Source: an uncultured Methylomirabilota bacterium (GTDB lineage Bacteria > Methylomirabilota > Methylomirabilia > Methylomirabilales > 2-02-FULL-66-22). From it: a DNA stretch of 64,000 nucleotides. The notes beneath the pieces were generated by a model. That model saw only the letters and a program-made list of their open reading frames with translations. It did no database searches and was not told where the DNA came from. Position 1 is the first letter of the stretch. Each line of letters starts with the position of its first letter. This document shows positions 37,746 through 54,133 of the stretch, piece after piece. The stretch spans positions 2,528,001-2,592,000 of the forward strand of contig OY970067.1 in the NCBI GenBank assembly GCA_963705305.1, read 5' to 3'. A program made the translations under genes and the position numbers.

Positions 37746-39398
37746 TCAGCGCATCTCGATGTACCCGCAGGGACACTGCTCCGCGCACTTCTTGCAACCC
37801 GTGCAGAACTCCAGCTTGATCCGGTAGGGCTGGCCGGCCTCCGCCGGCTTTTGGATGGCCCGCTCCTGGCAGTACTGCCAGCAGGTATCGCACTCGAAGC
37901 ACATGCCGCAGCTCAGGCAGCGCTTGGCCTCGGCCAGCGCCTGGTCCTCGGCGAGGCCGATGGTCACCTCGCGGTCCGGATCGGCGAACCGCTCCTCCAC
38001 CGGGATCGTCGCCGCGACGGACCGCGGCGCCTTGGGGTAGAATTCCGGTCGCAGCGTCTCCTTGGTGGCCACGGGCGGGGGTGCCGGCTCGGGCTCTTGG
38101 ATGCCGCGGAGCCGCCGATGAATGGTCTCGGCGACGCGACGACCCCGGAAGACGGCCGTGCTCACGATCCCCAGATCCAGGTCGTCCGGCGCGGCGAACG
38201 TGCCGGGGACGGCCGTCTCCCCGTGCGCGTCGGTGGAGACAGATCCTCCCTCGCCCCGTAGGGACTCCAGGCCGACCGTGTCCCGCTCGGCCTTGCCCGC
38301 CACGATGATCGTGCTGGCCGGCAGGAAGAGCTCTGCTTCGGCCCCCCGGGGCTGTCCCGCGTCGGCAACGCGTCGGCAGGTAAGGCCGGTTGCTCGCCCT
38401 GCTTCCATGCGAACGGCCGAAGGAACCGCCTGGCCCTGGATGGCGACCCCCTCGCGCTTGGCCTCTTCGATCTCCTGCTTGCCGGCGGGCATGTCCTCCG
38501 CCTTGCGGCGCGATACGATCGTGACGTGCGCCCCCAGGCGGCGTGCCACGCGGGCCGCATCCAGGGCCGTATCGCCCCCCCCGACCACCAGAACCTCTGT
38601 TCCCACCTCCAGGGGCTCGCCGCCGTTCATGCGGTGCAGGAGCTCGGCCGCGGACAGGACGTTGGGGGCGTCCCCGCCGGGCAGATCCAGGACGACCCCG
38701 CGGTGCGCCCGGATGCCGACGAAAATTGCGGCGTACTCCTGGCGGAGGGCATCCAGTGTGATGTCCTTGCCGAGGGCGCTGTTGCATTGAAAGGCCACCC
38801 CGAGGGTTTCCAGGCGGGCAATCTCTCCGTCCAGCACCGGGCGGGGCAGGCGGAAGGCTGGGATCCCGTACCGCAGCATGCCGCCGAGCTTGGGGAAGGC
38901 CTCGAACACCGTGACCGGATAGCCGCGCCGCGCCAACTGGTAGGCACAGGAGAGGCCTGCAGGTCCGGAACCGATGACCGCGATTCGCTCGGTCTGTCGT
39001 TCCTCGGTGATCGAGCGCAGGGGGAGCTGCCGCTGGAGGGCGTAGTCCCCGACGGCCCGTTCGAGGCAGTTGATCGCGACCGGCTCGTCGACCTGTAGGC
39101 GGCTGCATTGCAACTCGCACTGGTGAGGGCAGGCGCGGCCGCAGCTCGCCGGCAGCGGGTTCTTGTCGGCGAGGAGATAGAACGCCTCCTCCATCGCCTG
39201 GGAGAGAGATTTTCCGTGCTTCTCCGCCAGGGCCAGCGTCATGATGACCGAGCGAATGTCCTGATGGTTGGGGCAGGCCTTGGAGCAGGCCGGGGTCCTC
39301 TCGCTGAAGTACGGGCGCATGGGCGAACCGCCCCGGTCGCTTGGTGGCTGGCCTCCCCCGGATCCGAGTTTGCGCACCTTCTTGACGACAACGGCCAC
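37746..39398 (-). CDS. dsrL: DsrL-type iron-sulfur flavoprotein (divergent)
   Basis: TPACSKACP, NPLPASCGRACPHQC, GSGPAGL, GGGDTA, RCLSCGMCFECDTC, CTGCKKCAEQCPCGYI; GTG start after AAGGAG; directly upstream of dsrA. Confidence 0.8.
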   Translation of the reverse strand: MAVVVKKVRKLGSGGGQPPSDRGGSPMRPYFSERTPACSKACPNHQDIRSVIMTLALAEKHGKSLSQAMEEAFYLLADKNPLPASCGRACPHQCELQCSRLQVDEPVAINCLERAVGDYALQRQLPLRSITEERQTERIAVIGSGPAGLSCAYQLARRGYPVTVFEAFPKLGGMLRYGIPAFRLPRPVLDGEIARLETLGVAFQCNSALGKDITLDALRQEYAAIFVGIRAHRGVVLDLPGGDAPNVLSAAELLHRMNGGEPLEVGTEVLVVGGGDTALDAARVARRLGAHVTIVSRRKAEDMPAGKQEIEEAKREGVAIQGQAVPSAVRMEAGRATGLTCRRVADAGQPRGAEAELFLPASTIIVAGKAERDTVGLESLRGEGGSVSTDAHGETAVPGTFAAPDDLDLGIVSTAVFRGRRVAETIHRRLRGIQEPEPAPPPVATKETLRPEFYPKAPRSVAATIPVEERFADPDREVTIGLAEDQALAEAKRCLSCGMCFECDTCWQYCQERAIQKPAEAGQPYRIKLEFCTGCKKCAEQCPCGYIEMR

Positions 39399-39477: not shown

Positions 39478-39493
39478 GGCAAGGCATTTGCCA
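39478..39493 (-). promoter_or_regulatory. sigma54 promoter of the dsr cluster
   Basis: Minus strand TGGCAA-ATGCC-TTGCC, 80 bp upstream of dsrL. Confidence 0.7.
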
Positions 39494-39558
39494 GGTCCGC
39501 CGAGGGCTGCAAAAGCTTGCGAAATGGACCTTGGGGGAAAGAAGCACAGACGGGGCAC

Positions 39559-39605
39559 GTTACCGAAAGGTAACGGGCGAGGCTGGCACGTTACCTTCCG
39601 GTAAC
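39559..39605. promoter_or_regulatory. Tandem palindromic upstream activator sites GTTACC-N4-GGTAAC
   Basis: GTTACCgaaaGGTAAC (39559-39574) and GTTACCttccGGTAAC (39590-39605), 31 bp apart. Confidence 0.8.
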
Positions 39606-39797
39606 ATGGACCGGCCAAGTAAGCCCGAGACGCTTCAACTTCTTCCACAGGGTCTTTCGGCTGATCCCTAGAATCTGTGCCGCCCGAGCCCGGTTCCCCT
39701 CGGTCAGTTGGAGCACAGAAACGATGTGCTCACGTTCTGCCTGTTCCCGCACCTTCTGGAGAGGCCGGCCCATTATCTCATGAACAACAGGCACCAC
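39591..39797 (-). CDS. Stand-alone Fis-type HTH protein
   Basis: AGGAG-N7-GTG start; [30 protein letters not shown]. Confidence 0.8.
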
Positions 39798-40108
39798 CCG
39801 AACACTCCTACATTCATCCCAGAGAAGACGCTATGCGGCGAGCCCTCGCACATCAATACCGGGCAGCCCCCGGCACGCCCCCCGGTCCGTGCCTCGCAGG
39901 GACAGACAAACCCACCACCCTCGAGGCTGCCGCCTCGATGCCTCAAAATGTGGGCGGCGCACCTCCTATCCGATATGCCAGGAGCGGACAACCAAGATCC
40001 GCCAGGACCCGCCTGCCTCCTCCCTACGGGGGTTCCGGCCGGATCCCCGGGCTCGCTCCACGGCGCGAACTCGGGAATCCGGCCTGGGCGGTTATCGGAC
40101 CCGGCGGG

Positions 40109-40282
40109 CTAGCCGGGGAAGATGGCGGTGCCGATAATCACGAGCACCACCAAGAGCACCAACCCGAGAACCAGGCTCCACGTGACCAGCTTGCGTTCGA
40201 CCGGCAAGAATGGCTCGTAGGAGATTTTTGCCATCTCTTCCGCGAGCTTTTCTCCCGTCGGAGCGGCGTGTGGTTGCGCCAT
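40109..40282 (-). CDS. Small single-TM protein downstream of the YeiH-family transporter
   Basis: GGAGG RBS; EPFLPVERKLVTWSLVLG then a hydrophobic helix. Confidence 0.7.
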   Translation of the reverse strand: MAQPHAAPTGEKLAEEMAKISYEPFLPVERKLVTWSLVLGLVLLVVLVIIGTAIFPG

Positions 40283-40349: not shown

Positions 40350-41792
40350 TCAGACGGTCGGCGGCACGATCCCGTGGAAGAAGACCCACGAGATCACCAG
40401 CCCGATCCAGATGATGAACCCGAACAGGCACACCAGGTACACGAGCGCCAGCTTGCCGATGCCCTCCTCCCACAGCTTCTTGAAGTTCGAGACGAGCCCG
40501 ATGGTGAAGAAGGTCATGGCGAAGAAGAGCACGCGGAACACGTTGCTCTCTCCGGTCGCCAGCTTGGCCGCACCCAGGATGCTCGGCACATTGAGGACCA
40601 GAAAGAGCATCACCAGGAACGTCAGGGCGTACCCGATCACGAACTTGGGGAAGCGCTCCCAGATCTGCCCCGCCGAGACGGTCTCGCCCGGCTTCTTGTC
40701 GATGGCGTAGCACCAGATCAGGGCCAGCACGAAGGCCCAGACGCCGATGAAGATGTCGATGAAGATCTTGATCGTGGTAGCCGTCATCAGGATCCAGCCT
40801 TCCTTGTAGTTCACCCCTGACGCGGCCAGAGCCTTGGCCCGGATCAGGGCATCCACGATCGCCCCGCTGGCCACCGCGGCGCCGTCCGTCTTGACGGCCA
40901 GACCCATCCAGGCCCCTGCGACCATGGGCTGATGGTACAGGAACGTCTCTGCGATGAACGGCAGGAACAGCAGTTCGACCACCGCGAAGAGGACCACCAG
41001 CGACGAGACCATTACGGGAATCATCGGGCGGGACTTGACCGCCGCGCCGGTGGCGATGGCTGCCGAGACGCCGCAGATGGAGATGCCGGACGCCAGGGGG
41101 ACGGCCCATTCCCGACTGAACCCGAAGGCCTTGCGGGCGATGAGATACACCAGGGACCAGAAGATCAGGTAGGCGACGACGATGGCCGAGAACCCGAGAA
41201 ATATGATCGCCTTGGCGAGGCCGGTGGCGCCCGCGGCGCTGACGCCCAGGGACGCCCCCAGGATCACGATGGCGGTCTTGATGTACCACTCGGGTCGGGT
41301 GGCCTCCTTGAGGGCCGCCGTGATTCCGGGAAAGAAGTTGCTCAGGATCAGGCCCACCAGGAGGGCCACGACATATCCGGACTCACCGGTCAACCCCAGG
41401 GCCCAGGAGATGTGGAAGGCCTTGAGCTGGTTGGGGGTGGCCGCAATGTAGGCCCAGCTGCCGACCAGCCAGCACAGATAGCTGACCCAGAAGATGACCG
41501 TGAAGCCGAGGGCGAATTCCCCGAAGTTGAACTTCAGCGCCTTGGCCCCCACCCCCATGATGACCAGCATGAAGATGTAAGTGCACACCAGGGAAAGGAT
41601 CCCCGGCATCCCGGCGTAGTTCTTCGACAGCGGGGCTATGGACTTGGTGATATCGGTCCACGTGTTGGTGGCCACGCTCCAGCCGAGGAGATCCACCCCC
41701 GCAAGAACACCCAGGCCCACCAGGAAGACGAAGAGCCCAATCCACAAGGACCACCAGTCTTCGTTGTTTCGGATGAACTTTGTCCTCTCCAT
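40350..41792 (-). CDS. YeiH/putative sulfate exporter family transporter
   Basis: NEDWW, RPEWYIKTAIV, ASGISICGVSAAIAT, WERFPKFV; many TM helices. Confidence 0.85.
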   Translation of the reverse strand: MERTKFIRNNEDWWSLWIGLFVFLVGLGVLAGVDLLGWSVATNTWTDITKSIAPLSKNYAGMPGILSLVCTYIFMLVIMGVGAKALKFNFGEFALGFTVIFWVSYLCWLVGSWAYIAATPNQLKAFHISWALGLTGESGYVVALLVGLILSNFFPGITAALKEATRPEWYIKTAIVILGASLGVSAAGATGLAKAIIFLGFSAIVVAYLIFWSLVYLIARKAFGFSREWAVPLASGISICGVSAAIATGAAVKSRPMIPVMVSSLVVLFAVVELLFLPFIAETFLYHQPMVAGAWMGLAVKTDGAAVASGAIVDALIRAKALAASGVNYKEGWILMTATTIKIFIDIFIGVWAFVLALIWCYAIDKKPGETVSAGQIWERFPKFVIGYALTFLVMLFLVLNVPSILGAAKLATGESNVFRVLFFAMTFFTIGLVSNFKKLWEEGIGKLALVYLVCLFGFIIWIGLVISWVFFHGIVPPTV

Positions 41793-41872
41793 TTTTCTAC
41801 CCCCCACTCGAGATGAACGAGTACGTCCGTTACGCAGAGGACCGCGCCCTTCCATTGTAAATGGAAAGAGGT

Positions 41873-41888
41873 AGCAAGGACCTTGCCG
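41873..41888 (-). promoter_or_regulatory. sigma54 promoter of the YeiH-family transporter
   Basis: Minus strand CGGCAA-GGTCC-TTGCT. Confidence 0.68.
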
Positions 41889-41951: not shown

Positions 41952-41999
41952 GTTACCGCTTTGAAACGTCAGCGGGGATCGGCGTTACCGATCGGTAAC
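41952..41999. promoter_or_regulatory. Tandem GTTACC-N4-GGTAAC upstream activator sites
   Basis: GTTACCgcttTGAAAC (41952-41967, degenerate) and GTTACCgatcGGTAAC (41984-41999), 32 bp apart. Confidence 0.75.
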
Positions 42000-44496: not shown

Positions 44497-45840
44497 CTAG
44501 TCAAGGCCGAGCTGCTTCATCTTCTTCCAGAGTGTCTTCCGGCTGATGCCCAGGATCTCTGCCGCCTTCTGTCGCTGCCCGCCGACGCTGTGGAGGACCT
44601 CTTGAAGGTAGCGGCGCTCCGTCTCCCGGACGGCGCCTATCAGGGGCTGGGCTGCGAGGCTCCCCAGCTCCGCGGACACCGGAGCGGCCTCCGGGAAGAT
44701 ATCCTCTGCCGTGAGCACCGGGTTCTTGGTCAGCGTGACGGCGCGCTGGATGCTGGCCTCCAGCTCCCGGACGTTTCCGGGCCAGGCATAGGCGAGCAAC
44801 TGCCGGGAGGCCTCGGGAGCGATGCCATGGATGGTCTTGCCCAGCGGCCGCGCGTACTTTTCGAGAAAATGCTCTGCCAGGGGCAGGACGTCGTCTTTCC
44901 GTTCCCGCAAAGGCGGGAGCAGGATGGGGATCACCTTGAGGCGATAGAACAGATCTTCCCGCAGGCGCCCCGCCAGCACCTCGTCCTCCAGCCGCTTCCG
45001 CGTAGCCGAGAGCAGCCGGACATCCACCTTGATCGTCTGACTCCCGCCGATCCGCTCGAACTCCTTCTCCTGCAGGACCCGCAGGAGCTTGGCCTGGACG
45101 GCGGGCCCGAGATCCGCGACCTCGTCCAGGAACAGGGTGCCCCGATGGGCCAGCTCGAACCGCCCCTTCCGCTCCCGAATGGCGCCGGTGAAAGCGCCCT
45201 TCTCGTGCCCCAAGAGCTCCGCCTCGAGGAGTGTCTCCGGGATGGCGGCGCACGCCACCGACACCAGCGGGTAGGCCCGGCGCATACTGTGCTGATGGAT
45301 GGCCCGGGCGACGAGCTCTTTCCCCGTTCCCGTCTCGCCCTGGATGAGGACGGTGGCGTCACTCTTGGCCACGGTGGCGATGAGCTCGCAGATCCGCGCC
45401 ATCGCCTCGCTGACGTAGATGAGGTCGGCGAACCGCTGAACCTGTCCGGCCCCCGTCCGCTCGCGCGGAGCCCGGCCGGATTGGACCAGCAGGCCCCGCA
45501 GCAGCGTGAGCAGCTCCTCCGAAGGAAACGGCTTCAGCAGGTAATCCGTGGCTCCGGCTTTCATCGCCGCCACGGCCGACTGGATCGTGCCGAAGGCCGT
45601 CATCATAATGGCAAGGCCCTGGGGGTTCGCCGCCTTGAAGGTCTGCAGCAGCGTCAGGCCGTCCACCTTGGGGAGCTTGAGGTCAAAGAGCGCCACGTCG
45701 AAGCTCCGGGCCTGGATGAGGCGAAGGCCCTCCGCCCCATCGGAGCCGCTGGTGACCTCGAACCCTTCCTCGCCAAGGTCGTTCGCCAGTGTCAACCGGA
45801 GGATCGGCTCGTCCTCTACCAGCAGGATGGTCGGTCGCAT
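44497..45840 (-). CDS. NtrC-family sigma54-dependent response regulator
   Basis: Receiver domain, [42 protein letters not shown]. Confidence 0.95.
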   Translation of the reverse strand: MRPTILLVEDEPILRLTLANDLGEEGFEVTSGSDGAEGLRLIQARSFDVALFDLKLPKVDGLTLLQTFKAANPQGLAIMMTAFGTIQSAVAAMKAGATDYLLKPFPSEELLTLLRGLLVQSGRAPRERTGAGQVQRFADLIYVSEAMARICELIATVAKSDATVLIQGETGTGKELVARAIHQHSMRRAYPLVSVACAAIPETLLEAELLGHEKGAFTGAIRERKGRFELAHRGTLFLDEVADLGPAVQAKLLRVLQEKEFERIGGSQTIKVDVRLLSATRKRLEDEVLAGRLREDLFYRLKVIPILLPPLRERKDDVLPLAEHFLEKYARPLGKTIHGIAPEASRQLLAYAWPGNVRELEASIQRAVTLTKNPVLTAEDIFPEAAPVSAELGSLAAQPLIGAVRETERRYLQEVLHSVGGQRQKAAEILGISRKTLWKKMKQLGLD

Positions 45841-45847
45841 GGCTGCC

Positions 45848-47303
45848 TCAGTCTCCGCTGGCGGGGAGGGCCACGGTCACGGTGGTCCCCCTGCCGACTT
45901 CACTGTCCACGGCAATGGAGCCCCCGTGAGCCCTGACGATTCCGTAGGTTACGGAGAGGCCCAGCCCCGTTCCCTTCCCGACCTCCTTGGTGGTGAAGAA
46001 CGGATCGAAGATGCGCGGAAGGTTGTCGGGAGGGATGCCGATGCCGGTGTCGGCGACGCGGACCTCGACGAACGGTTTGATCGCCCTCCGGCAGAGGCTG
46101 CCGTCGATTGTGAGCGTTCCCCCCTCGGGCATGGCCTCGATGGCGTTCATCAGGATGTTGAGGAAGACCTGCTCGAGCTGGTGCGGATCCGCCAAAAGAC
46201 CGGGAGCCGCCCTCTCCATGGCCAGGGAGAAGGTGATCCGCCTGGCCGTGAGCTCGTGCTCGAGGAGGGTCAGGCAGCGCTGGAGCAGGGGGGTCAATTC
46301 CACGGGGAGAAGCCGCGGCTTGGCCTCCCGGGCGAAATTCAGGAGCTGCCCGACGGTCCGGCCGATCCGGTCCAATCCCTCCCGCAGCATCTCCAGGTAT
46401 TGCACCCGCTGCGCCTCGTCCCGCGCCCCTTTCAGGAGCGTCCGCACGCAGTTCTGCATCCCGGCGATGGGGTTGTTGATCTCATGGGCGATGCCCGCGG
46501 CCATCGTGCCCAGGGACGCCAGGCCCTGGGCCCGCCGGATCTCGTCCGCATGGCGGTCTTCCAGCTGTCGTCGGGCCTCCGCCAATCGAGCCACCATGGC
46601 GTTGAGGCTCTTGGCCAGAACGTCCCAGCTCGTCCCGGCTGTCGTCGGGAACGCGGGCGGTGAGATCGCCGGCCTCCACCAGGCTCATCGTCCGTGACAG
46701 GGTATGAATCCGCTGCCCGGCCACCAGGGAGAAGAACAGCCAGATCATTCCGCCGGCGGCGATGAGTCCCGCGACGCCGATGACGATCATGTACATCCAG
46801 TGGGGATCGGCCCACAAATCCGCCGAGGGAACATACACCTGCGCATTCAAGTAGCCGAGGACCGCGGTCTTGCGCTGGTGGCAGCGGGCGCAGCTAGGAC
46901 GATTCGGGATGGGGAGGAACACTCCCACGGTTCGCTCCCGGAGGTTCCAGACCGGCTCCGAGAAGGTTGCATCCTTGGGCAATTCTTCCGGCGAAAGAAC
47001 CTGCCCCTCCTCTTCCGGCTTGCTCGCGCGGAGGATGGTGCCGTCGGCGGCCACGATCCGAATGCCGGCCAGGACCGGCTGGCGCCCGATCCGGGTGAGA
47101 ATTGCCTGGACGACGTGCGTCTCTCCGCGCTCCATCGCCCGGGCCAGCGCCCGGACTGATACCTCGGCAATCAGATCGGCCTCTTGCCTGGCCATCAGCA
47201 TCAGACGATTCACCTGGATGCTCGAGGCGAGGATGGTGTAGACGAGGATGACCAGCAGGAGGACGGCCCCGATGCCGAGGATCATCTTCATCCGCAGCGA
47301 CAT
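45848..47303 (-). pseudogene. Sensor histidine kinase (periplasmic CXXCH, HAMP, HisKA, HATPase), frameshifted near 46620
   Basis: Two overlapping ORFs; removing one T restores [34 protein letters not shown]; may be a sequencing error. Confidence 0.8.
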
Positions 47304-52768: not shown

Positions 52769-54133
52769 TCAGTCCTCGCCCAGCTTGATATGGTACCGGC
52801 GGATCTTGCGGTAGAGGGTCCGGCGGTCGATCCCCAGGATGGAGGCGGCGCGGATCTGATGCCCCTTGGTGCGCCGGAGAATCATGGCGATGTAATCCCT
52901 CTCCAGATCCTCCAGCGTGGCCTCTTTGGCCAGGGCGCGCTCCAGCGGATCGGTGCCGCCGGCCAGGTGGGGGGGGAGGTCGCCCGGCTGGATGGCGGGG
53001 TCGCGTCCCAGGGTCACCGCCCGCTCGATGATATTCTCCAGCTCGCGGACGTTGCCGGGCCAGCCGTAGCTCAGGAGGATGGCCATGGCCTCCTTGGAGA
53101 TCTCCCGGATATTGGGGTTGGATTCCTGCGAGAACTTCTGCATGAAGTGATTGGCCAGCAGCGGGATGTCCTCCTGCCGATCCTTGAGATCCGGCAGGGT
53201 GATGGGCACGACATTCAGCCGGTAGTACAGATCCTCCCGGAAGCTCCCCTCCTCCACGGCCTTCTTCAGGTCCCGGTTGGTGGCGGCGATGACCCGGACG
53301 TCGATCTTGATGGTCCGGGTCCCCCCCACCCGCTCGATCTCCCGCTCCTGGAGGGCGCGGAGGATCTTCGCCTGGAGGTCCAGGCGCATGGAGCCCACCT
53401 CGTCCAGGAACAGGCTCCCCCCGGTGGCGAGCTCGAACTTCCCCACCTTGGTGGCGATGGCCCCGGTGAAGGCCCCCTTCTCATGGCCGAACAGCTCCGA
53501 CTCCAGGAGCTCGGAGGGGATGGCGGCGCAGTTGACGGCGACGAAGGCCTTGGAAACCCGCGGGCTGTTGTAGTGGACGGCCTTGGCCACCAGCTCCTTT
53601 CCCGTCCCGCTCTTGCCGTAGACCATCACGGTGCTGCGGCTGCCCGCCACCTGCTCGATCAGGCCGAACACCTCCTGCATGGCGCGGCTCTTCCCGATCA
53701 GGTTCTCGAAATGGTAGCGCGTGCGGAGCTCCTGCCGCAGGCTGCTCACCTCGTGCCGCAGCCGCCGCTCCTCCAGGGCCTTGTCGATGGTCAGGAGCAT
53801 CTCGTCGATCTTGAAGGGCTTGTTGATGTAGTCGTATGCTCCTTCCTTCACGGCCTGCACCGCCTGGTCGATGGACCCGAAGGCCGTCATGATGATGACA
53901 ACGGTGTCCGGATTCAGCTCCTTGATGGCCTTCAGCGCGTCCATGCCGCTCATCCCCGGCATGCGGACGTCCGTCACGACCAGATCCATGGGCTCTTTCT
54001 CGAGCACGGCCAGGGCTTCCGCCCCGTCCCCGCAGGCCGCGACCTGATAGCCGCTCTTGTCCAGGACCTTGGCCAGCAGGCCCCGCATCTGCTCTTCGTC
54101 GTCCACAACCAGGATGCGCGCTTTCGTCGTCAT
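52769..54133 (-). CDS. NtrC/AtoC-family sigma54-dependent response regulator
   Basis: ILVVDDE, GKSGTGKE, GAFTGA, WPGNVREL, HTH ILGIDRRTLYRK. Confidence 0.95.
   Translation of the reverse strand: MTTKARILVVDDEEQMRGLLAKVLDKSGYQVAACGDGAEALAVLEKEPMDLVVTDVRMPGMSGMDALKAIKELNPDTVVIIMTAFGSIDQAVQAVKEGAYDYINKPFKIDEMLLTIDKALEERRLRHEVSSLRQELRTRYHFENLIGKSRAMQEVFGLIEQVAGSRSTVMVYGKSGTGKELVAKAVHYNSPRVSKAFVAVNCAAIPSELLESELFGHEKGAFTGAIATKVGKFELATGGSLFLDEVGSMRLDLQAKILRALQEREIERVGGTRTIKIDVRVIAATNRDLKKAVEEGSFREDLYYRLNVVPITLPDLKDRQEDIPLLANHFMQKFSQESNPNIREISKEAMAILLSYGWPGNVRELENIIERAVTLGRDPAIQPGDLPPHLAGGTDPLERALAKEATLEDLERDYIAMILRRTKGHQIRAASILGIDRRTLYRKIRRYHIKLGED

Follow-up and report, generated by a model that had tools for sequence, protein, structure and literature searches.

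The window, i.e., the whole stretch of 64,000 nucleotides that was analysed, harbors a dsr gene cluster, in front of which a short gene encodes a stand-alone helix-turn-helix (HTH) protein (here referred to as the mini-gene and the mini-protein, respectively; Table 1). Upstream of the mini-gene are found, in this order, genes for a small membrane protein and a transporter, a radical SAM gene, an epimerase-like gene and the genes for an NtrC-family activator and a sensor kinase. Names of the dsr genes were assigned from Pfam domains together with the gene order, and dsrD was labelled by its position, the winged-helix match being weak. The extra base that splits the kinase frame near position 46619 is absent in one contig of run X1 (the only run with this stretch; depth 4.8) and the frame aligns through in the relatives inspected, so the split is probably an assembly error. 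In a 2023 survey, Methylomirabilota are reported to be without dsrD and dsrL (PMC10591310), and the dsr cluster of the window is therefore not the one described there.

Table 1. Coordinates of the mini-gene, its regulatory elements and neighboring genes in the window
Feature	Position	Strand	Remarks
Stand-alone Fis-type HTH_8 mini-protein	39591..39797	-	68 aa, GTG start; without receiver or AAA+ domain
Shine-Dalgarno-like AGGAG	39805..39809	-	GTG 7 nt further on
Recognition-helix codons S-R-K-T-L-W-K-K	39639..39662	-	same residues as in the 44497 activator
Distal palindrome GTTACC-N4-GGTAAC	39590..39605		centre at ~-130 from the inferred start site; carries the last codons and stop of the mini-gene
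Proximal palindrome	39559..39574		31 bp from the distal palindrome; centre at ~-100
Sigma-54 -24/-12 promoter of the dsr operon	39479..39493	-	predicted element; one RpoN-box ORF in the genome
CAA-N4-TT element, IHF-like (weak)	39510..39519	-	between enhancer and promoter
Second palindrome pair	41952..41967 and 41984..41999		centres at ~-98 and ~-130 from the transporter promoter
Sigma-54 promoter of the transporter unit	41874..41888	-	-24/-12 element
dsrL-like flavoprotein	37746..39398	-	first gene of the dsrL-A-B-(D)-N-C-T-M-K-J-O-P cluster (to 27646)
Small membrane protein	40109..40282	-	behind the transporter; conserved beside one transporter type
YeiH-like putative sulfur-oxyanion transporter	40350..41855	-	PF03601; TIGR00698 below cut-off; upstream of the mini-gene, co-oriented
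Likely cognate NtrC-family activator (REC-AAA+-HTH_8)	44497..45840	-	HTH intact
Cognate sensor kinase (HAMP-HisKA-HATPase)	45848..47303	-	split by one extra base near 46619

The slot before the mini-gene is occupied in different loci by YeiH-like transporters of two types, ~33% and ~80% identical to that of the window (40350-41855); both types are found under a palindrome pair, and the small membrane gene accompanies one type only. A G+C-rich hairpin without a U-tract lies at 40028-40047, between the small membrane gene and the mini-gene.

The sequence-only reading of this DNA had described a 68-residue reading frame with its own AGGAG ribosome-binding site that is nothing but a Fis-type HTH, and this description holds: the AGGAG is found at 7 nt, and HTH_8 (PF02954) is the sole Pfam family in the chain, where it covers residues 17-57 (E 1.6e-15; 57 bits against a gathering cut-off of 22). 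The AAA+ sigma-54 interaction domain is absent both from the chain, according to Pfam, and from the upstream DNA. The structure model, with a pLDDT of 82-87 over residues 21-50 and a mean of 71, has predicted helices at residues 13-31, 36-43 and 47-57 in a three-helix bundle with a C-terminal recognition helix, while residues 1-11 are unstructured and of low confidence; the N-terminus is also variable across the family. Of the solved structures, Fis and the DNA-binding domains of activators, among them NtrC4 and NtrC1, come nearest to the predicted structure, and a Foldseek search with the model gave no match at E 0.001. The product of the mini-gene is an HTH_8 protein that is neither a sigma-54 activator nor Fis. 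A 12-residue helix segment is, as had also been noticed, identical in the mini-protein and the 44497 activator and differs in the regulator at 52769, which reads ILGIDRRTLYRK. Among the HTH matches listed for the 29 AAA+ activator reading frames found in the genome, the recognition helix of the mini-protein occurs only in 44497.

A search for DsrL in 61 genomes, which defined a set picked independently of the mini-gene, yielded eight orthologues from the same genus with 55-74% identity. The mini-gene and the palindrome pair precede dsrL at all eight of these loci and are absent at two paralogues of 40% identity (11 loci examined). The intact short reading frame to be looked for in relatives is thus present in 8/8, and a full-length protein is found at this place in none of them. 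A protein search that was word-seeded, and by this biased, gave 132 matches among 132 candidates of 37-119 residues; the 120 matches listed from this word-seeded search are 53-116 residues long (median 75) and keep SRKTLWKK in 115 cases. Two scans of sequence collections, with patterns that included the recognition helix, gave at least 34 and at least 68 loci. The host records include ones labelled Rokubacteria, Chloroflexi, Tectomicrobia, Deltaproteobacteria, Nitrospirae, Syntrophobacteria and Sulfotelmatobacter, and some of these labels may reflect transfer or binning.

Drawn from the window, the scans and three relative regions, the set used below comprises 41 copies that are distinct and stand alone, contain all 45 core codons and reach a profile score of at least 77 (loci outside the window are given L numbers, genomes G numbers); identical copies, the contig-cut L100, L103 and L124, the copy with a helix loss (L112) and low-scoring activator tails were left out. 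Over the 45 codons, which lie outside the palindrome, the median dN/dS is 0.157 (481 usable of 820 pairs), compared to 0.143 for the activator domain (29 orthologue domains; 349 usable of 406 pairs). The nine copies found through dsrL gave 0.167 (35 of 36 pairs), and the codons outside the search patterns 0.26 and 0.23. Column conservation by codon position is 0.89/0.93/0.69. None of the 41 cores contains a stop, whereas breaks are common in the other frames. The A, E and I residues of the long helix are invariant in 41/41 copies. The search pattern accounts in part for the invariance of the recognition helix among these copies; the invariant residues of the helix display synonymous codon variation. 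The dN/dS check proposed for the short reading frame therefore returned a median (~0.16) near that of the activator domain (0.14), and, on the codon statistics, the 41 copies are under purifying selection and do not represent a decaying remnant. An in-frame start is found within 26 codons in 40 of 40 copies with upstream sequence, with a Shine-Dalgarno match of at least 4 nt in 18 of these; a Shine-Dalgarno-backed start at the codon used in the window (-12/-13) is common to 11 of the 40. Near the upstream start of the family (-19 codon), an out-of-frame ATG in 39773-39813 opens a 14-codon frame, the stop of which overlaps an internal ATG of the mini-gene, either by possible translational coupling or by chance.

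As first reported, the mini-gene ends within the distal palindrome, its TAA stop being at 39591-39593. Four palindrome matches with at most two mismatches are found in the window against 0.40 expected, a number reached in 0 of 100 shuffles, and the genome (5.6 Mb) contains two palindrome pairs, both within this island. The centres upstream of dsrL are placed like the NtrC sites at glnA, which are located ~90 and ~140 bp upstream of the gene (PMC7408454). In the set of 41 copies, the palindrome pair is found in 34, a single site in six and none in one; the stop lies inside the first site in 27 and a downstream sigma-54 promoter is present in 32, and the distance from the recognition-helix Arg codon to the start of the first site is mostly 54 nt. 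The tail of the mini-protein, Val/Ala-Thr-x-Gly/Arg-stop, is the palindrome read in frame (an earlier stop is seen in four copies), and because these codons are fixed as DNA, the overlap of gene and enhancer is a product of position rather than a feature of the protein. Between the sites and the promoter, a CAA-N4-TT motif occurs in 14 of 31 copies against 1.8 in shuffles, and the strict IHF consensus in 0/31; the element of the window likewise departs from the full IHF consensus. An IHF site is a possible identity of this element.

In a tree of 77 domains, which is rough at 45 columns, 36 of 37 distinct mini-protein cores fall into one clade (98/93), apart from the activator orthologues. The mini-protein of the window shares 23 of 45 core residues with 44497 compared to a median of 35.5 with other mini-proteins, which together with the separate clade rules out a recent duplication of the 3' end of 44497; in the long helix, where mini-proteins and activators have fixed differences, 5/21 residues are identical. 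A search for longer proteins (20 matches among 116 candidates) gave three HTH_8-only forms of 121-128 residues, below which all matches were full activators with scores of at most 61 bits; as a sign of absence, this search counts for little. One full-length activator, P0124, has a different recognition helix and a long helix identical to that of the mini-protein at 13/21 positions. Because of this mini-like helix, and because Geomonas activators end in the same palindrome, an ancient origin of the mini-gene by truncation of a P0124-like activator is plausible. Decayed AAA+ sequence was also looked for upstream, in 39798-40110, and none was found: with 29 queries, the matches (best E 0.003) either did not fall in the AAA+ region or were in the wrong orientation. 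The suggestion that the gene is, in its present state, the remnant of a deleted activator consequently does not stand, given the short frame in 8/8 relatives, the dN/dS of ~0.16 and the lack of an AAA+ remnant. A split activator was considered when tblastn alignments of the activator ended at residue 434 in L035, L036 and L060, and was rejected, the proteins at these loci having whole HTHs. A partner activator without its own HTH, of the CtcC/FlgR/FleT type, was not seen among the seven orthologues inspected; each of them has this helix in an intact C-terminal HTH.

The mini-gene is found in two layouts. In layout A, that of the window, it lies behind the transporter unit, and a site pair and a sigma-54 element belong to this unit as well. 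Between transporter, mini-gene and dsrL in the window, terminator candidates were not convincing (three weak matches against 2.0 expected), and a sigma-54 promoter belonging to the mini-gene itself was not found. A conserved sigma-70 promoter for the mini-gene in this layout was discarded as a candidate, the matches among those listed being scattered and the promoter scan of the window giving none. In layout B (six loci), the mini-gene is located directly after the activator, and the cassette fronts arsenate-, thiosulfate- and tetrathionate-reductase-like operons with ArrA-like (L035, L036), PhsA-like (L038) and TtrB/TtrA-like (L092, L098) targets, all below NCBIfam cut-offs; L086 ends before the target gene. 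Here, five of the six mini-genes (all except that of L036) have their own -24/-12 element, the position of which is fixed (-88 in four, -86 in one) and which in four loci would start the transcript ~5 nt before a start codon, and the variable N-terminal stretch of the mini-protein keeps its length. Upstream of this promoter no good palindrome is found (best 3-5 mismatches), and the centre of the enhancer is located ~225 bp downstream, from which it would appear that one enhancer drives both promoters of layout B. Other activators, such as FlrC, FleQ and FlbD, are known to work from sites downstream of a promoter. Nothing on downstream enhancers was found in PMC10696123. In either layout, production of the mini-protein would have to await an active activator.

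Of 16 full-length activators with the helix of the mini-protein that were looked at, 11 are followed by the palindrome at no more than ~100 nt from the stop, among them Geomonas and Geobacter activators before nitrite-reductase-like genes, and three of the 11 end inside the palindrome as the mini-gene does; it is missing behind the other five, from Polyangia, Caldimicrobium and one Acidobacteriota record. The identical recognition helix and the co-conservation of helix and palindrome fit a mini-protein that likely shares the sites of the activator. Among 251 genomes of the phylum, for which some candidates were scored per genome, 12 have the mini-gene, 15 an activator orthologue (at least 70%) and 11 both. 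The sole genome with only the mini-gene is 76% complete, and an activator without a mini-gene was found in G001, G004, G018 and G136 (90-100% complete; four of the 15 activator genomes). In G004, G018, L105, L106, L113 and L119, the activator is directly followed by the site pair and promoter, without a mini-gene; the cassette of L119 fronts formate dehydrogenase N. Because the activator orthologues have a whole HTH and loci without the mini-gene exist, the activator needs no mini-protein for DNA binding, and the mini-protein is probably an accessory to it, as these genome comparisons suggest. At L049-L051:10123-10168, Geomonas/Geomesophilobacter activators with the same helix end in the palindrome above a sigma-54-like element and nrfH/nrfA-like genes, i.e., a predicted activator site in cultured, tractable strains.

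Some loci depart from this arrangement. At L077, L078, L093, L091, L094, L097 and L124, the mini-gene is intact and one palindrome is left, while the distal palindrome and the dsr sigma-54 promoter are lost; in the last four, an extended -10-like element was read by eye ~50-60 nt behind the remaining site. Six copies in which the sigma-54 promoter of dsr is gone together with at least one palindrome have a dN/dS of 0.154 (11 of 15 pairs), and competition at the dsr enhancer can therefore not be the only role of the mini-protein. The transporter promoter retains its site pair and sigma-54 box in L077, L094 and L102, such that in these lineages the mini-protein may act at the transporter promoter or have a role independent of sigma-54. 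A switch of sigma factor or a fusion of the transporter and dsr operons are possible accounts of the lineage without the promoter. At L079:8075-8290, an inverted-repeat element with the look of a miniature mobile element takes the place of the enhancer and promoter of dsrL, the mini-gene being intact. From the mini-gene at L112:4206-4398, the recognition helix is cleanly missing in frame, either by a real deletion or as an assembly artefact; otherwise this copy equals L098 at the protein level.

The reading that we favor, with a probability of roughly 55%, is that the mini-protein is an activator-induced competitor, which likely binds the paired palindromes of 44497 and, having no ATPase, would damp the dsr and transporter promoters in a negative feedback. 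This model is based on the intact, selected reading frame, the identical helix, the fixed position at the enhancer, the co-occurrence with the activator and the activator loci without a mini-gene. The kinase would phosphorylate the activator, which in turn would fire both sigma-54 promoters, and only thereafter would the mini-gene be transcribed, in the window on the transporter transcript from a promoter 2 kb upstream and in layout B from its own sigma-54 promoter, driven by the palindromes downstream. The mini-protein would then dimerise through its long helix and compete for the palindromes; by holding the sites without an ATPase it would limit further activation, i.e., cap or time the expression of the respiratory operon. 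Activator loci without the mini-gene would be as expected of a modulator. A putative mini-protein that shares the sites could equally help the activator, which concerns the sign of the effect, and a lone domain without the Fis helix A may dimerise and bind too weakly to displace the full activator.

If the effect were positive, the mini-protein would be an architectural helper that holds one palindrome and bends DNA as Fis does, or that helps to load the activator on the adjoining site. The likeness to Fis in addition to activator domains, the rigid 31-bp spacing of the two sites, which leaves room for mixed occupancy, and an activator-driven induction that would suit positive feedback as well are in line with such a helper; we nevertheless consider it unlikely, as the same activator, site pair and promoter occur without the mini-gene at L105, L106, L113, L119, L176 and L177, an IHF-like element is already found between enhancer and promoter (14/31 vs 1.8), and a helix that matches that of the activator is expected at the activator's own sites rather than at helper sites. 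A role independent of sigma-54 ranks below the helper: the mini-protein would either shield dsr from read-through by blocking the way of the polymerase or regulate, in the manner of Fis and from one site, a sigma-70 promoter. It draws on the seven loci that keep the gene and one palindrome after loss of the sigma-54 promoter, on the -10-like elements seen by eye in four of them and on the lack of a convincing terminator from the transporter to dsrL in the window, but the state without the promoter is that of a minority (6/41), and with the transporter promoter intact in L077, L094 and L102 the mini-gene may simply act there.

Lower again is our estimate for an inhibitor acting by protein contact, where mixed dimers with the DNA-binding domain of the activator would be unable to build a full ATPase ring. 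The strong conservation of the long helix would agree with this mechanism, and mixed dimers also need a shared recognition helix; yet the long helix is consistently unlike that of the activator (5/21 in the window), which suits self-pairing better. Very improbable is the reading that the mini-gene has no function and is what is left of a deleted activator, retained solely for its overlap with the enhancer: the long helix of P0124 (13/21) and the ends of the Geomonas activators (L049-L051) make an origin by truncation plausible, and the last five codons are set by the palindrome rather than by the protein, but the dN/dS of 0.16 over 45 codons outside the palindrome, the 0.89/0.93/0.69 pattern, the 41/41 cores without a stop, the own promoter in 5/6 loci and the absence of an AAA+ remnant upstream are at odds with it.

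The solved C-terminal DNA-binding domains of sigma-54 activators (NtrC4, 3e7l/4fth; NtrC1, 4l5e; ZraR, 1ojl; NtrX, 5m7n) are parts of full activators, whereas the mini-protein has a gene and a start codon to itself and, in many loci, a promoter as well. Fis, which arose from an NtrC-type domain, is a stand-alone small protein with the same HTH and the best PDB sequence match to the mini-protein (E 9.5e-8). At 68 residues compared to the 98 of Fis, however, the mini-protein is without the N-terminal arm and helix A of the four-helix dimer core, and the alignment covers Fis 53-97 only; it reaches 37.5 bits with the NCBIfam Fis model PRK00430 (cut-off 99) and 33.4 with PRK01905 (cut-off 122). Unlike Fis, a global nucleoid protein, the mini-gene is tied to one palindrome and one activator and is found in 12/251 genomes of the phylum.

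Among negative regulators of sigma-54 activators, PspA and FleN act by protein contact, while TurA and PprA are, by family assignment, host regulators unrelated to the domain of the activator. The microProtein idea from eukaryotes is close to the design of a DNA-binding-only paralog. NifL acts by protein contact (PMC10084136), MphX is a 293-residue protein of another kind (PMC3063778), and TurA and PprA interfere with activator binding at the XylR-dependent sigma-54 promoter Pu (PMC3253710). NifL, PspA, FleN and MphX resemble the modelled mini-protein in being dedicated negative partners of sigma-54 activators, and none of them is known to be an HTH_8-only protein; the mini-protein would work as TurA and PprA do at Pu, but as a dedicated paralog encoded on the enhancer. 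A survey of activator architectures (PMC3162934) includes forms without a DNA-binding domain, and among the architectures considered from it none consists of this domain alone. Our literature search gave no description of a DNA-binding-domain-only paralog of a sigma-54 activator, nor of sigma-54 control of dsr; the main text of PMC4641369, whose motifs are in figures and supplements, contains no "GTTAC", "dsr" or "sulfite", and that of PMC12316311 no "dsr".

In the literature found, sigma-54 activators are switched off via sensor domains or anti-activators acting by protein contact, and a DNA-binding-only paralog with the helix of the activator would be a different, simple route to feedback. 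The data point to a two-component, sigma-54-dependent switch on dsr genes, and to reuse of the same switch for other anaerobic respirations. Because the 68-residue protein, the 16-bp site and the complete promoter can be rebuilt in E. coli, the model is testable despite the uncultured host. More tentatively, and with clearly less confidence than in the competitor model, we consider it possible that the arrangement is a portable, self-limiting sigma-54 cassette, in which a palindrome pair would drive both a respiratory operon and a DNA-binding-only paralog of the activator, the latter from a position ~225 bp downstream of the promoter of the paralog, which would then occupy the enhancer. Such a cassette would have moved before sulfite-, arsenate-, thiosulfate- and tetrathionate-reductase-like operons across several phyla, and in one lineage without the sigma-54 promoter the mini-protein would now be a free-standing Fis-like regulator, replaying the origin of Fis.

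Further observations concern the flanks of individual loci. At L061 (G020:C2:812194-817015), two near-identical copies of the mini-gene and palindrome pair flank decayed IS4-type transposases and a suyAB-like SAF/altronate-dehydratase-family pair. The first copy of L061 is without a sigma-54 element, and similar flanks are found in L087, L088, L100 and L103. Behind the first copy of L087 come genes for a transposase and a GntR regulator and aldehyde and alcohol dehydrogenase-like genes, and the flank of L103 contains, as read by eye, an apparent glycyl-radical enzyme. At L119:1829-4915 and in L105, L106 and L113, an in-frame stop ~200 codons in, presumably the one expected for selenocysteine, divides the gene for the alpha subunit of formate dehydrogenase, which is under the same activator.
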